Shown here one piece after another: positions 13,845-20,920 of a stretch of DNA of 64,000 nt (positions are counted from its first letter, which is position 1; every line of letters begins with the position of its first letter). The notes below the pieces were generated by a model. The model saw nothing but the letters and a program-made list of their open reading frames with translations. It searched no databases and had not been told where the DNA came from. The translations under genes were made by a program, and so were the position numbers. Location: NCBI GenBank assembly GCA_951406725.2, contig OX597833.1, forward strand, positions 61,380,001-61,444,000. Reading direction: 5' to 3'. The DNA is from Octopus vulgaris. Its lineage: Eukaryota.

Positions 13845-16800
13845 TTATGTATGTGTGGCATTGGGTCTTTTTGCCCCACCGGTGTTGGTGTGTTTACATC
13901 TCCGTAACCTAGCAGTTCAGGAAAGGAGAGTGATAGAATAAGTACCAGGTTTTCAAAGAATAAGTCCTGGGGTTGATTTGTTCAACTAAAAGGTGGTGCT
14001 CCAGCATGTCAGCAGTCAAATGACTGAAACAAGTAAAAGAGTAAAGAGTGTGTAAATATGCAAAACTCATCCCTTATGTGTGTGTATGAGTATTTAAATT
14101 TTTCTCCTTCTGTATATATATATACTAGCAGTATCACCCAGCGTTGCTCAGATTTGTAAGGGAAATAACTATATAAGCATTTTTAGAGAGTTACTTCCCT
14201 TATATAAACCGAGCAAAAAATGCATTAAAAATGCGAAAAAATGATGGTAATTTTTTTTATCATTGTAGACTCATCGTAGATGCATGCTAATACCCAGAAG
14301 GGCTCAATAGGAATCACGACTATAAGATACCCGCTTTTGGTTAAACTGCACCGCAAGATGTGGGAGTAGTTAGGAATCTAAATCAGAGGAGACAGACTCT
14401 CACACACACAACTTCAGTTTTATATATAAAGATATATATATATACATGCAGTAATCCCTCAACTATTGCAGGTGTTATGTTCCAAAACCCTTCGCAATAG
14501 GTGAAAATCCAAAGATTTGATAAATAACACTTGTCCCCTAATTTCTTCGCTCTGCCCCTACCCACTAAATTATTCAAAGCCAGAATTATTTTAAATATTT
14601 CTCAATTTCTAGGGATCAACTGATAACTTGGAACAAGATTTAAATTTTGTTCAGAAGCATGGAGTGAAATTAGGAGCCAAGGTTGTGCGAGGGGCATACA
14701 TGGACCTCGAAAGGGCTCGAGCCCTAAAACAGGGCTATGCCGACCCGGTCAATGACACATATAAGGAAACATGTTGGAGATATGAAACTAATGTAGAGAA
14801 GATGTTGAAAAAGATAGCGAAATATCCACAACATTATCGAATGATGATTGCAACACACAACGAGGAAAGTATCAAGAAATTATATAAAAAGTAGGGTTTT
14901 TTTATTTTATACATAGTTGTTGTGATTATAACTGCAGTTGCTGTTGCTGTTGTTATTGTTGTTGTTGCTGTTGCTGTTGTTGTTGCTGTTGCTATTATTA
15001 GGGATGTGCTGTGTTAAAAACACAATAAATGCCATCCAGAAGAGATGTCATCTCAGCGTGTATATATTATGTACAATACACAGATAACAATTTTAAGTTA
15101 CTACCGCCTCAGTTGTATACACCAGCTTTTTATTCAGCTCAGTGGCTATTTGCAACATCAGTGGATGTTTTATTAACTGTTTCCAATATTGGAGATGATG
15201 AATTGTTGCCTGAGAATATTGCTGACTATGAGTACACACCATTGACAAGGCTCCCCAAAAAATGAAATGCATCTGGCATTATCATTGACTGCTGTTGAGG
15301 CAAATTTCCATCTCAGATTGATATTTAATGTGTTATAATACACCTTTTCCATAGATAACTGGCCAATTGACTGTGTGTGTATACATTAAGTATGATACAT
15401 AGATTGCTGTATTAATTTAATTTAATTTTGCCTCAATTTCATATAGCAGATTTATATTGTAGAATATTATATTTACATGTGTAAATCAAAAGTATTATTT
15501 CTTATTTCCATTGATATCTTCCTTTTGTTCCAGAATTGAAGAACATGGTGTTGATAGAAGGAATGGAACTGTATTTTTTGCCCAAACCTTTGGAATGAGT
15601 GACCATATATCATTTACTTTAGGTAAGATTCCATGTAGGGTCTTAAAATAATGGTATTTTAGTTAATATTGCATGTGCATGTGTGTATGCATATATATAA
15701 ATATCATCATCCTTTAACGTCCGGTCAGGTATTTCTCCTGCAGTTGCCTTCCCAGAAATATAGCATCAGTGGTGCTTCTACCTGGCACAAAACCAAACTG
15801 CATCTCATCTAGGCTAAGTCTCTCCCTGATTAGTAGGGCTATGACCATCTCCATAACTTTCATCACCTGATCCAGCAATTTGATACCTTTGTAGTTATTT
15901 CTGTCTAAAGCATCACCTTTACCTTTGTAGCAATTGATTATGGTGCTGCCACACCAGTCATTGGAAATGACTCCTTCATGAACTACCTGATTTATGATAC
16001 GGGTGACTAGACCATCACACACCACCATATGTTTTAAGCATATCAGCAGACATTCCTGATGGGCCAGGAGCTTTCTCTGTCTTCATATCCTTAATTGCTT
16101 TTCTACCAGGGTACTTTCAATTCGGGTATCTGGTGCCTCAATTGGGTCAAACTTTGGCAGATTCTCCTCCTCCCATTCATTCTCCACATTCAGCAGTCTT
16201 TCATAATGGCATCTCCAAGTCAATTTCTTTGCAGAATCATTAAACACAAGTGCACTCTCTTCCATGCGGACATAAATATACATATTAGAAACTTTGTTGC
16301 TACGAGCATTAACAGACTTCAGGGTGCAAGGCAAGAGAGAACAAAGGTTCATTTATGAAACATAACAGCAAAGAAGAACACACATTTACTCTTTGCACAT
16401 GATTAGACTCGGAAAGTTTGTGTGGAACACACTGACCCAATTTGCTGACTTTCCCGATATCATGCAGGTATTGATGAAAGGTTGAATGACCAAATCAGAG
16501 CTTCTCTGCTAGTTCCTCAACAGTTACAATGGGATTTTGTTCCACCAGGGTTTGCAGGATGTCCATGTCAAGCTCTACAGATCTTCCAGGACAAGGCTTG
16601 TCTTCTAGGCTGCAGTTTCTAGCTTGGAATTTCTGGAACCACCATTGACACTGACTTATGCTTATTGTCCAATCCCCATATACTGCATTAATATTCCTTG
16701 CACTTTCCATTGCATTCTTGCCTTTATTGAACTCATAAAACAGAAACTTGGCGTCATTGTTGGATGTGTTGTTACTGACAGTGTTGTTGTTCTGCTTTCA

Positions 16801-16974
16801 GGAGACAGTGATGTCCTTATCTACAAAGCGCTACCGTATGGTCCTGTCAATGAAACATTAGCATACTTGGCACGTCGGTTGCAGGAGAACAAATCCGTTT
16901 TGAAAGGAGCCAGGCGTGAACAGAAACTGGTTGAGCAGTTTTTAAAGGGCCGACTTACCTTCTGGAAAAACTAA
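1155..16974 (+). CDS. PRODH2: Proline/hydroxyproline dehydrogenase, mitochondrial (PRODH2-like), copy A, 493 aa
   Basis: Exons 1155-1182, 5817-6097, 8403-8593, 9506-9635, 10064-10150, 11534-11611, 12421-12567, 14613-14890, 15534-15622, 16802-16974. All introns are GT-AG with matching phases; 1482 nt in total. Motifs YGQFVAGE, AKMTAL, DAEHTYVNPGL, TYQSYLK, KVVRGAY, ATHN, QTFGM, YKALPYG, YLARRLQEN. The basic N-terminus (MAFTNIPFRVLRYSMK) resembles a transit peptide. Confidence 0.92.
1290..1572 (-). mobile_element. tRNA-derived SINE (family A), partial
   Basis: Reverse complement of the element at 3059..3465; paralogous copy at ~23350..23720. Confidence 0.75.
1870..2310. mobile_element. Dispersed repeat (family D) with internal tgccggtggcacgtaaaaagcacc subrepeats and a (GAT)n tail, probably RTE-mobilised
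   Basis: Related copies at ~2437-2710, 19160-19540, 31955-32140, 40170-40795 and 49730-49970. Confidence 0.65.
2316..3028 (+). mobile_element. Two SINE family B copies, one interrupted by a family D insert
   Basis: gagctggcagaa..ttagca..aaatgcttagcggtattt..gagttcaaattc..gtcgactttgcctttcatcctttc. Other copies near 11155, 26300, 29834, 45800(-), 48545(-) and 61620. Confidence 0.75.
3059..3465 (+). mobile_element. Full-length tRNA-derived SINE (family A)
   Basis: Pol III A/B-box-like head (tggctgtgtgg / gggttcagtccc), central microsatellite, and tail ggcggtgctccagcatggccgcagtcaaatgactgaaac with (aagagta)n. Near-identical to 33060..33482. Confidence 0.85.
3597..4016. mobile_element. Possible old hAT-type non-autonomous element
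   Basis: Imperfect termini cagagctggattaa ... ttaatttggctgtg; AT-rich interior; only the right part is kept in copy B. Confidence 0.35.
4185..4690. repeat. 18-bp minisatellite (ctcacctgaacatctggg)n, about 28 units, with a 54-bp higher-order repeat
   Basis: Visible tandem units; accounts for the SPEHLG / RCSGEP repeat ORFs. Confidence 0.9.
5295..5650 (-). mobile_element. Dispersed repeat (family E), partial
   Basis: Reverse complement of the 3' part of 30728..31250 and 61867..62420. Confidence 0.7.
7008..8124 (+). mobile_element. Internally deleted IS630-Tc1-mariner element with a nested SINE (~7475-7690)
   Basis: TIRs TAcagggtgggtagaaagtaactagacattagaaattg / caatttctaatgcctacttacgtttcatccaccccgTA. 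PDLTPCDFYL transposase motif. Copy B has a single-TA empty site at ~27444. Confidence 0.85.
8967..9185. mobile_element. hAT-type MITE
   Basis: TIRs cagtggttttcaac / gtttgaaaagcactg, perfect 8-bp TSD ccttaggg (8959-8966 and 9186-9193); absent from copy B. Confidence 0.9.
10190..10463. mobile_element. GC-rich TG...CA insert in a (TTA)n tract, probable solo LTR
   Basis: Termini tgtagtg...gccaca; absent at the paralogous site (~30480-30560); TSD is ambiguous inside the microsatellite. Confidence 0.5.
11910..12135 (+). mobile_element. LINE 3' end fragment (CR1/L2-group-like)
   Basis: Encodes VDIFKKNIDFLLSKIPDE, followed by tail ggtagttctccagcatggccatagct. A longer paralogous copy lies at 32170..32550. 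Confidence 0.65.
12739..13180 (+). mobile_element. Solo LTR (Ty3/gypsy-like, 442 bp)
   Basis: TGTAG...CTACA inverted termini, 4-bp TSD cagg on both sides, internal AATAAA; absent from copy B. Confidence 0.85.
13596..14048 (+). mobile_element. SINE family A
   Basis: Same head and tail as 3059..3465 with a (TG)n middle. Confidence 0.8.
14125..14432 (-). mobile_element. Non-autonomous Helitron
   Basis: On the - strand it starts TC(tttatatata), ends CTAG preceded by a gagcaacgctggg hairpin, and sits between A and T with no TSD. Confidence 0.7.
15718..16265 (-). mobile_element. RTE-type LINE reverse transcriptase fragment
   Basis: YKGKGDALDRNNYKGIKLL...QFGFVPGRSTTDAIFLGRQLQEKY in ORF 15714..16028; the upstream frame is interrupted. 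Confidence 0.85.
16317..16745 (-). mobile_element. mariner transposase N-terminal (HTH) fragment
   Basis: ARNINAVYG...QWWFQKFQ..SLEDKPCPGRS; same family as 42030..43218. Confidence 0.8.
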
Positions 16975-16989
16975 TCATGCATTTAGAAA

Positions 16990-17123
<134 letters not shown>

Positions 17124-17460
17124 ACACACACACGCAAATATATTTTTTTATCTTTTATCTATTAATTGTTTCAGTTATTAGACTGTGGCCATGCTGGGGC
17201 ACTGCTCCTGAGGAATTTTAGCCGAATGAATCAACACCTGTGCTCATTTATATTTTAAACCTGGTCTTTATTCTATTGGTCACTTTTGCTAAACCTCTAA
17301 GTTAAAGGGACATAAACACACCAACACTTGTTCTCAAGCAGAAATACACACACACACACACATGAACATAAAAAATATGAGTGCTGGGATTGATTCATTC
17401 AACTAAAACTCTTTGACACAGTGCCCCAGCATGGCCACACTCCAATGCTTGAAACTAGTA

Positions 17461-17858
17461 AAAAATAAAATGTATTTGAAGAATGCGAAGGAACCATCAT
17501 TTACAAATCAAAAACACAAGCCAAAATAATCTGAGATTCTAAATCCAAAAGTTTAATGGCATCAAATTTTCAACTGAATTCTTTTTTACAAAAATTTTTT
17601 ACTTTGTATATTTTGTGAATTTATTGACAACGAAAATATAAAGAATGAAAATAAAAGACCAACAGAAAAGTAAACTTTATTGGAAATTTAGTTATGGCCC
17701 TCAGGTTATCAGCTATTTAATCTCATCACTTGATCGATCCAGCTTCGATATTGAGACACACGGGTGAATACACCTGGGGAATTTTCAGGGTGATCTTTGC
17801 TGGTGAATGATGCAACACCACCCTGCATCCAGCTATAGGGGCTCGGACAAACCAGTGG
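17461..17858 (-). pseudogene. Orphan, inactivated copy of the last exon and 3' UTR of the serine protease
   Basis: 17709-17858 matches protease exon 39700-39849 (PLVCPSP..W..FTSKDHPENSPGVFTRVSQYRSWID..MRLNS*). It lacks 18 nt (acctccgctgtcaccctg) covering GDSGG and the AG acceptor. No upstream protease exons are present. Confidence 0.9.
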
Positions 17859-18024
17859 TCAAATACAGAAATGCATAAATATAATTACGGAGATGTACTT
17901 GCATAGCAAGTGACCTGATCTGAGATCGTGTGCTGGAACGAAAACAATTGCAGCGTGGAAGGTGTTTGTAATCCATTTAAGAAACACACAAAACCGTTAG
18001 AGTCACTTCAACATTTAAATTTAA

Positions 18025-18160
18025 TTTACCAAAATATTTTCGTCGCTTTAAGACCGCGACCTGTTCACTGACAAAAATCCGTGCTGCTCAGATGCAGCAC
18101 AGATTTTTGTCAGTGAACAGGTCGCGGTCTTAAAGCGACGAAAATATTTTGACAAACTAA
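18025..18160. ncRNA. ~60-bp-arm inverted repeat carrying two head-to-head minimal hammerhead-like motifs (Penelope-like element end)
   Basis: + strand: stem I TTTGTCA/TGACAAA, core GTGAACA(G), stem II GTCGC/GCGAC, GAAA, palindromic AATATT helix III. A mirror copy lies on the - strand. Confidence 0.55.
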
Positions 18161-18238
18161 ACTTAAATCATAAATATAATATAATGTCTTAAAAGTTGAT
18201 GAACCACCTATTGATCCCCTCCATTTTCTTATTGCTCT

Positions 18239-18301
<63 letters not shown>

Positions 18302-18310
18302 CACACGCAT

Positions 18311-18353
<43 letters not shown>

Positions 18354-18832
18354 TACATGATGGCTTCCCCCTTGTTATCGAGTATGGCCATTGCACGAAG
18401 CTTAACAGTTATTGGTGCTGTGATAGAATGTGACTTTTATTTGCTTTTTAAGTCTACAGCCAGCCATTCAGTTGAGACTCACAACACTATCAACAATTGT
18501 GAACAATGTTGTTATCGTACAATGCCTGTGCAAGAAGATTTTTTTTAAAGTGAGGAAAGGCTGTGCACTGAGTCAATCCCCCACACTAAGCAACAGCAGC
18601 TATAATCCGAAAATAAGAACAAGTCAACATCATCGGTAACCACTGAGCCGCAGGTTTTATGTCAGAGTTATCCCAGTTACCTGAGTTACCTTCTCCTAGA
18701 AGGATGCCCTAACAAAGGCTAGGGGTCCTTCACTCCCAATGGTTTAACCACGCGATCGGGTATTCAGTCTGATTATTTCTATGTCCCCACACATGATACA
18801 GCCTTAAGCCTTAAGAAAAAAAAAAAAGAAAT

Positions 18833-18864
<32 letters not shown>

Positions 18865-19573
18865 TTCACACAGAGACACACACAATCTAACCATGCATAA
18901 ATAAATTCAGTTAGCTTCAGATCACACTTGTAGAAAGACCCCGAATGATGTTGCATAGCAGAATGTTGCTGGTTGCATGTGCAGCTACATATTCCAAGTG
19001 CAGCAGAAATGCATGTCGGCCATTTTAACCAATTATTTTGTATAATTTACCGTTAAAATTAAAAGAAAAATTTGAAAATGTATCAGTCTCTGTATTCATT
19101 ATAATTGTTTTGGATTTTTATCACTATCACCGTCATTATCACCATCATTATCATCATCATCATTTAATGTCCATTGTCCACGCTGGCATGGGTTGAACAA
19201 TTCGACCATGGTTGGTAAGTGGTAAGTTGAGGAGCTGCACCAGACTCCAGTCTGATTTGACATGGTTTCTATGGCAGGATGCCTTTCCTAACGCCAACCA
19301 CTCTGAGAGTGTAATGGATGCTTTTATGTATCACCAACACAAGTGCTAGTTTTGCGACACCAGCATCAACCACAATGCCTCCATGAGGCCCGCTGCTCAA
19401 AATTTGCCTTTTACATGCCACTGGCACAGTGGTACTTATGTGACACTGGCATCGGCCATATTGCCTCTGTAAAGCCCAACACTCGAAAGGCGCTTTTTAC
19501 ATGTCACCAGCATGAGTGCTTGTTACGAGGCACTGGCATATATATATATATATATATGAAATAATAATAATAA

Positions 19574-19614
<41 letters not shown>

Positions 19615-19825
19615 TTAAAGGGTAAAATTAATTAATCAATTAATAATTAATAATTTTACTAAGTAGTTCAGTATGTTAAAAGAACCATTATCGGTAACCT
19701 TATACAATAATTCTACAATTATAAGCATAAATTTAAAATTGAAATATTATATTGAAGACGGGAGTAAGTGAGTAGAAATATGATTTTACATCTTTTTACA
19801 TTTCTTTAACCCAGAAACGCATATA

Positions 19826-19839
19826 TAATAATAATAATA

Positions 19840-19870
<31 letters not shown>

Positions 19871-20920
19871 TTGTGTACAGTGCTCAGGTGCACTACAACT
19901 CATCGAAAGTGTATATATAATCAGGTGTAGTTTCGACGGATTTCGGAAAGCATGAGGGCCTTAAAGGATGCAGTGTCGTGGCAGTCAACAACTGACGCAG
20001 GCAGTTTATTCCATGCTTCAGCAACTCTGAGCGTGAAAAAATGTTTCCGAAAGTCATGGGAGCTGTGTTGTTTTCTGACTTTGTAGGCATGTCCACGTGT
20101 GTTAGACACATGGAGATCAAAAAGGTGTTCAGTGTTGTTATTGGTGAGGTGGTTGACAACTTTGTGGGTGTTTACCAAGTCCATCGCCAGACGCCGGAGC
20201 TTCAGTGAATCCATGCCCAGGGAAACAAGGCGCTCAGAATATGGTAGGTGTCTGATGGAGGGTATGCGTTTGGTTGCACGTCTCTGGACAGATTCCAGGA
20301 GGTCAATGTTCTGAGCAAGATAGGGATTCCAAACTGATGATGCGAATTCCAAGTGTGGTCGTACCATAGCTGTATACAGTTTTAAATAGATGGCTGGAGA
20401 GCGGCTAACAAAAGTCTTGCTGAGTGATGCCAAGACACCCTCGGCCTTCTTGACAATTTTAGAGATATGCTTTGTCCAACGCAAATCACTGCTGACAGTG
20501 ATGCCTAGGTCACGCTCACAAGAGGATTTCTTGATATCAGTGTTGTGGAGGGAGTATGTGGACGCAGGGTTTTTTCTCCCAAAATGCATGGTGGTACACT
20601 TGTCCACAGCCAGTTTCAGTTGCCAGTCTGTGATCCATTGCTGCATTGTGTCCAGGTCTGATTGCAGGAAAGAGCTGTAGACAACAGGATCTGTCCTCTT
20701 GATTTCAAGGTACAGCTTGATGTCGTCTGCATATTTTAATACTGTGGCATTCTTTAAATTTGCATCTATGTCATTAATGTATGCCACAAACAAGAGGGGA
20801 CCAAGGACAGATCCCTGTGGTACACCCGATGACATCTCATATGGTGTAGAATGCTGTCCTAGACCTGTGACTACCTCCTTTCGGTTGAGAATGAAGGACT
20901 TCAACCAGTTAAAAAGGTCA
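19826..20920 (-). mobile_element. 5'-truncated CR1/L2-group LINE with an intact RT C-terminal ORF and (TTA)n tail
   Basis: ORF 19921..20904: SGVPQGSVLGPLLF, YADD, ERDLGI, RPHLEFASSVWNP, FFTLRVAEAWNKLP. Short 3' UTR then an (AAT)n tract. Confidence 0.93.

Follow-up and report, generated by a model that had tools for sequence, protein, structure and literature searches.

A Penelope-like retrotransposon insertion in Octopus vulgaris with head-to-head hammerhead motifs of a putative compensated G3-C8 core

We analysed a window of 64,000 nucleotides (64 kb) of Octopus vulgaris DNA (contig OX597833.1, positions 61,380,001 to 61,444,000; coordinates below count from its first letter), which contains a palindromic retroelement insertion. 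The palindrome is centred between positions 18090 and 18091, its arms form a 157-bp self-match (92%; 18013-18168), and 57 of 58 positions pair across 18030-18087, in agreement with the original prediction of a near-perfect palindrome with arms of about 60 bp. That prediction placed the feature at 18025-18160; the sequence there is as described, but the whole element is larger, spanning 17884-18168. It comprises a long arm of approximately 205 nt on the reverse strand (17884..18088) and a short inverted arm of 82 bp on the forward strand (18087..18168), the latter delimited by self-match and copy comparison. Comparison of the flanks identifies 12-bp target-site duplications on the left (17874..17885, forward strand, the last 2 bases being common to the element end) and on the right (18169..18180, forward strand). 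A trypsin-like gene likely hosts the insertion in an intron, with roughly 50 nt separating the element from the splice acceptor read from the sequence, downstream of it, for the likely last exon (17709..17832, reverse strand; Pfam Trypsin E=2e-4, 21.7 bits with a cut-off of 20.6).

Each arm contains a motif with the topology of a minimal type I hammerhead ribozyme, and the two motifs read outward from the palindrome centre on opposite strands. The right motif (18106..18156, forward strand), delineated by sequence, fold, alignment and descriptor match, has a 7-bp stem I (18106-12 with 18150-56), the core GUGAACA (18113-19, with G3 at 18113 and C8 at 18118), an extra G directly after the core (18120), and a 5-bp stem II closed by a G10.1-C11.1 pair (GUCGC 18121-25 with GCGAC 18135-39). 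These are followed by GAA (18140-42), the palindromic AAUAUU (18143-48, A15.1 to U16.1) and U17 (18149), after which cleavage is predicted. The left motif (18025..18075, reverse strand; sequence, descriptor match and fold) mirrors the right one, with G3 at 18068, C8 at 18063, a predicted cut after 18032 and a stem I weakened by the variant TGGTAAA. The conserved U4 G5 A6, A9, G12 A13 A14, A15.1-U16.1 and H17 are all found in both arms. The literal consensus C3 and G8 are not matched, as both arms have G3 and C8; a Watson-Crick 3:8 pair is nevertheless present, G-C in the palindrome motifs and C-G or U-A in their relatives.

We searched the window with a descriptor of a strict minimal hammerhead permitting any Watson-Crick 3:8 pair. 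It matched exactly the two palindrome motifs and nothing in 30 resampled 64-kb windows, which, together with the sequence itself, upholds the proposed topology. Structure prediction recovers stems I and II of the right motif as drawn (-14.4 kcal/mol, z -2.5), with 4 of 200 shuffles equally good, and the left motif folds more weakly (-9.0 kcal/mol, z -0.7). An Rfam scan of 16000-20000 up to E=5 returned no hammerhead family match; its 13 matches all fall under the gathering score and mostly correspond to hairpin microRNA (miRNA) models.

Genome-wide searches (2.8 Gb, 227 contigs) link this sequence to a retrotransposon family, hereafter family 1. A first similarity collection with the palindrome stretch gave 1,466 candidates, 40 of which were scored. 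The shared sequence extends about 205 nt outward from the centre to one of two 3' ends, often (TA)n, and copies extending further upstream run into an open reading frame (ORF). One long copy (L086) has a 1025-aa open frame with a GIY-YIG domain (E=1.8e-5, above cut-off), the reverse transcriptase (RT) motifs YVDD and DKSG visible in our alignment of the proteins (A1), Pfam itself giving no RT domain, and the sequence CQSNCAVC (Cx3CxxC) as the linker between RT and endonuclease (EN). The hammerhead motif lies about 1 kb beyond the end of this ORF, and both L086 and L100 contain tandem and inverted copies. An ORF with RT and GIY-YIG is thus present in long copies, and the proposed linkage to Penelope RT/GIY-YIG ORFs is supported. 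A further locus that looked tandem (L061, on contig C6) turned out to be a local duplication without an ORF. The element protein has 235 homologues at E<=1e-30, its best database match being an Octopus vulgaris protein nearly identical to a sister family in the same genome.

The short arm of the window insertion stops before the usual short end. The long arm is an approximately 90% match to the ends of ORF-bearing copies and stops at the family's common long 3' end, where 3' ends cluster. The terminal 93 nt of this arm's 3' end (17884..17976, reverse strand) would encode the first 31 codons of the ORF, judging by eye from homology to the ORF starts of a second family (family 2) and of a metagenome relative (L135). 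The same layout has been described in PMC11167929 and PMC3846280. An RT and GIY-YIG frame, inverted pseudo-long terminal repeats (pseudo-LTRs) with a one-sided tail and a short target duplication together make it almost certain that the palindrome represents two head-to-head, 5'-truncated pseudo-LTR 3' ends of a high-copy, endonuclease-containing (EN+) Penelope-like element. The tail is about 60 nt here, versus the 30-40 nt described for EN+ Penelope-like elements. A CX2-5CxxC linker between RT and EN defines the Neptune/Nematis type (PMC8557442), to which the octopus linker would assign this element; our protein tree comprised unnamed relatives only.

The G3-C8 core is a property of the family and not of the window copy alone. 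A core pattern leaving positions 3, 7 and 8 free has 7,079 matches in the genome and none when reversed; among the first 100 matches listed, 95 are G3-C8 and none is C3-G8. A downstream anchor pattern has 8,358 matches, and 110 of 117 distinct aligned arms, from loci obtained in targeted searches, are G3-C8. None of the 19 matches changed at both positions 3 and 8 is C3-G8, which argues against a C3-G8 sister inside family 1. Contigs from all four sequencing runs, under four organism labels, show no core variant at or above 3%, loop II being variable, and subfamilies approximately 84% identical in the ORF have the same core. The genome-wide core state supports the proposal that a CUGANGA search misses the motif. 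U17 is found in 116 of the 117 family 1 arms, and many C3-G8 relatives have C17. A G3-C8 variant performs worse with C17 (PMC3884650), and the preference of family 1 for U17 may reflect this.

Copies with an unpaired G3.G8 state are scattered over subfamilies without forming a clade (20 changes for 21 tips, equal to shuffled data), and both arms of single insertions often differ at position 8. This pattern rules out G3.G8 as an ancestral intermediate lineage. Among the first 100 matches listed, C8->G is about 2.6 times as frequent as C8->A, across subfamilies (L180-L209).

Relatives of the element allow the origin of the core to be addressed. Family 2, whose protein is 54% identical to that of family 1 over 814 aa, has a homologous motif at the same place, with a C3-G8 pair and a compensated stem II. 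A pattern fixing G8 has 1,042 genome matches from several families, of which about 81 of the first 100 listed are C3-G8. Among 11 metagenome loci with related proteins, the descriptor motif occurs in two (L135, C3-G8; L136, U3-A8). Three more are by-eye readings near related ORFs: L134:4966-5016, with C3-G8 and U15.1-A16.1; L139 (~290-330), with a U-rich core and U3-A8; and L140 (~2350-2400), in which A replaces G5. No motif was seen in the remaining six loci, some of which are without the region. A helix III palindrome is present in the window motif, L135 and L136 and only partial in family 2.

We aligned 11 motifs (alignment A2), of which 10 have letters at 3:8, and the pair is kept in all 10 (CG 5, GC 4, UA 1). 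Both-sided changes affect 12 of 15 pairs in this small set with one misaligned row, including four of five stem II and five of seven stem I pairs; none of 500 shuffles reaches that number, and slid controls give 2-3 pairs. In a protein tree of 13 rows, family 1 (support 100/100) is sister to family 2 (100/100), and the C3-G8 and U3-A8 rows L135, L134 and L136 fall outside both. This nesting of G3-C8 among C3-G8 and U3-A8 rows makes it very probable that G3-C8 is a derived, compensated core, which arose by swap from a C3-G8 ancestor. The natural compensated variant put forward in the original prediction is thus supported by the genome-wide core state, the relatives, the alignment and the tree, and the small alignment also supports stems I and II by covariation.

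Family 2 and one of the metagenome relatives showed further features of their own. The youngest family 2 form (98-99% protein identity between copies) has C for A9 in an otherwise canonical core (L088:7385-7432, G000:C15), older forms having A9; in L136, C9 occurs together with U3-A8. Within the N-terminal half of the 1312-aa family 2 ORF (L088:2942-6880) lies a long insert rich in asparagine, similar to those described for rotifer Penelope elements. The metagenome relative L134 (L134:1-2800) has a long Ala/Thr/Asn/Ser repeat region upstream of the RT, embedding a domain that looks protease-like by eye.

The structure of the copies provides a record of how the insertions arise. Of 57 divergent pairs, 44 combine one long with one short end, 2 have two short ends, none has two long ends and 11 have another end; 8 tight opposite-strand pairs occur among the first 100 core-pattern matches listed, and many copy ends run into (TA)n. 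The arms of 4 of the 57 pairs (L008, L011, L014 and L025) belong to different loop II subfamilies. Fold-back of one complementary DNA (cDNA) would be expected to give identical arms, so these four insertions were probably each copied from two RNA templates; the alternative is gene conversion.

We also surveyed the 5' ends of 100 consecutive copies on contig C1, where ends near 47-51 nt are blurred by differences between subfamilies. Ninety-three begin no more than 68 nt upstream of the anchor, 48 of these at 58-68 nt, an 11-nt zone ending at AGATGC. Six of the 100 (L254, L258, L293, L295, L296 and L298, dispersed over 4-26 Mb) have common flanks and thus stem from one duplicated locus, spread within a larger duplicated or mobile unit. 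Among pooled loci, 17 of 24 non-C junctions have G before AGATG where the template would give C (p=1.5e-6), and G is present at this wall in 11 of 13 junctions judged by eye without an inverted arm. The extra G probably derives from the cap, copied along with an RNA whose start lies some 16 nt ahead of stem I; at the window locus this would place the transcription start at the A of AGATGC (18090, forward strand), where the 5' ends of copies accumulate, often with a non-templated G. The wall could instead be a 3' splice site, with its CAG lying behind a pyrimidine tract and a CTAAC that resembles a branch point, but junctions are preceded by a single G only and have no common exon sequence, and we prefer the capped start. 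No 5'-end peak is present at the predicted cut site in this contig C1 survey, at most 3 of the 100 copies (one of them ambiguous) starting within 3 nt of it, which argues that cut RNA is not a common template and that the template is mostly uncut.

These observations suggest a model in which transcription would begin about 16 nt before stem I, placing the motif at the RNA 5' end, ahead of the ORF. A staggered cut in AT-rich DNA would let the RT prime once on either strand, at ORF positions roughly 10 and 31 codons from the start, and the RT would copy uncut RNA as far as the cap. The two cDNAs would then be joined head to head to yield the palindrome, in some insertions with arms from different RNA molecules. 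Within this Penelope pseudo-LTR reading, we put at roughly two in three the probability that the motif still folds and has weak cleavage activity, either as an RNA dimer or helped by the element protein, and measurable self-cleavage of the G3-C8 motif appears probable. Position 8 of the hammerhead acts through its 2'-OH and requires a Watson-Crick 3:8 pair, so that the swap is expected to keep the fold at a reduced rate. Consistent with this, a Penelope hammerhead engineered to carry both C3G and G8C regains part of its cleavage (PMC11167929). A fuller version can be offered only tentatively: a G3-C8 hammerhead that is natural, active and fixed in about 7,000 copies, completing a C-G/U-A/G-C series within one Penelope clade and standing at a capped 5' RNA end, where two uncut RNAs, possibly joined through helix III, would template both arms.

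The same origin is compatible with a motif that no longer cuts, its fold and 3:8 pair being leftovers or serving RT binding, RNA-RNA pairing via helix III or the shaping of the 5' leader; we regard this as possible, if rather unlikely. Several results that weigh against cleavage bear on it. Copies derive from uncut RNA, with hardly any starting at the cut site, and the youngest, highly active family 2 multiplies with its C9; altered cores also occur in other active relatives (C9 in L136 and the odd cores read by eye in L139 and L140). About 200 family 1 copies have unpaired G3.G8 (283 matches, with G8 in 72 of the first 100 listed), more than have G3.A8. The test of constraint on core and stems is not significant (common polymorphisms at 0 of 42 core and stem sites versus 13 of 181 elsewhere, p=0.06), and the four G3-C8 rows of the small covariation set, in which L135 is misaligned, amount to one event. 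The computed energy of the AAUAUU helix III duplex amounts to just -0.2 kcal/mol, and when two strands are folded together, the best structure exchanges stems instead of pairing helix III. In one viroid hammerhead, G as the extra base is reported to be harmful. The family 1 extra base is G, against H in the published consensus (PMC4209133 supplement). In the Anolis system of PMC11167929, insertion in vitro did not need cleavage, and the RNA-seq data described there contained no reads terminating at the cut site. Set against these points is the nature of the pair that has been preserved. The 3:8 pair forms solely in the catalytically active hammerhead fold, and its Watson-Crick state has survived two independent swaps; moreover, no common core or stem polymorphism separates the diverged family 1 subfamilies. 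On balance we favour weak cleavage.

The remaining explanations concern the palindrome itself. Selection of the head-to-head pair as a functional unit, acting as a device of two ribozymes or as a small-RNA hairpin within a host intron, would fit the predicted read-through RNA, a single very stable hairpin (-103 kcal/mol, z -22), the location in a likely intron and the miRNA matches, but these matches are all sub-threshold, the layout is routine for insertions of this kind both in this genome, as the tight pairs indicate, and in the elements of PMC3846280 and PMC8557442, and the site is missing from the paralogous unit (unit B) in the window. Since the motifs lie on opposite strands, one RNA contains a single sense copy paired to its antisense, and the read-through hairpin leaves no dimer action in cis; the pair as a working unit is therefore not supported, and we consider a selected unit very improbable. 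The window locus itself is likely silent, the palindrome being predicted to lock the motif in the hairpin. A foldback or miniature inverted-repeat (MITE-type) DNA transposon resembling a hammerhead by chance would account for the thousands of short palindromic copies and for the six copies with one junction. Yet the arms are unequal and variable in length, those six copies trace to one duplicated locus, and chance descriptor matches were absent from the resampled windows; the same sequence terminates RT/GIY-YIG elements, which refutes this explanation, and we give it practically no credence. The reading as a Penelope pseudo-LTR insertion with a weakly cutting motif thus remains the preferred one.

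The motif shares with the minimal type I Penelope hammerheads (Cervera and de la Pena 2014, PMC4209133) its place in the pseudo-LTR, an extra base between 9 and 10.1, the G10.1-C11.1 pair, a palindromic helix III, opposite-strand pairs, thousands of solo copies and the existence of a natural core swap, which there is U3-A8. It differs in its G3-C8 core, in having G as the extra base instead of H, and in a stem I of 7 bp versus 4-5 bp. Natural 3:8 covariation was also described by Perreault et al. (2011, PMC3088659), whose account, as far as available to us, contains only rare U3-A8 cases, whereas G3-C8 is fixed here in about 7,000 copies. The PAc Poseidon element of Anolis (Frangieh et al. 2024, PMC11167929) is alike in its hammerhead at the ORF start, AT-rich targets, uncut RNA template and two RT start sites inside the ORF, which produce the tail. 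G3-C8 is in that case a laboratory mutant with partial activity and here the natural family state, and the octopus element has a Zn-finger-like linker of Neptune/Nematis type. EN+ Penelope elements usually carry inverted pseudo-LTRs arranged head to head (Arkhipova et al. 2013, PMC3846280; Craig et al. 2021, PMC8557442), and they also share an inverted 5'-truncated copy, a one-sided tail, a short target duplication and a (TA)n bias. Self-priming on an antisense template was suggested in PMC3846280, whereas the extra G at the sharp 5' wall and the arms of different subfamily point here to a capped sense RNA as template, with two templates in at least some insertions.

Natural U3-A8 hammerheads are thus known (PMC3088659, PMC4209133), and in our literature search, which did not cover all relevant papers and supplements, G3-C8 appeared only in engineered cases (PMC11167929, PMC8495972, PMC3884650). 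If it does cut, the G3-C8 motif would be a new natural variant of self-cutting RNA. Hammerhead surveys use CUGANGA or UUGANAA, to which whole high-copy G3-C8 families are invisible, and elements reported without a hammerhead may carry swapped cores. The family offers a natural experiment on the 3:8 pair, in which sister families from the same genome can act as controls. Its thousands of short insertions record Penelope integration, from the RNA start to the mostly uncut template and the inverted arms that can stem from two templates, and bear on an open question of Penelope biology that is testable in an existing in vitro system.

The history of the window insertion is only partly as first proposed. 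The element is absent from unit B, as first noted, but so is all of ~17889-18875, that is, the element plus about 700 bp beyond it, so that unit B does not represent a clean empty site. The 12-bp target duplication marks an insertion, but its recency is weakened by the 95% identity of the long arm to the nearest sampled copy and by the older-subfamily letters it carries. The window also contains a tandem duplication of approximately 20.5 kb (1-20500 and ~20500-41000), the duplicated unit comprising proline dehydrogenase exons on the forward strand (14517-14795 region, Pfam E=1.7e-19) and the trypsin-like last exon on the reverse strand.
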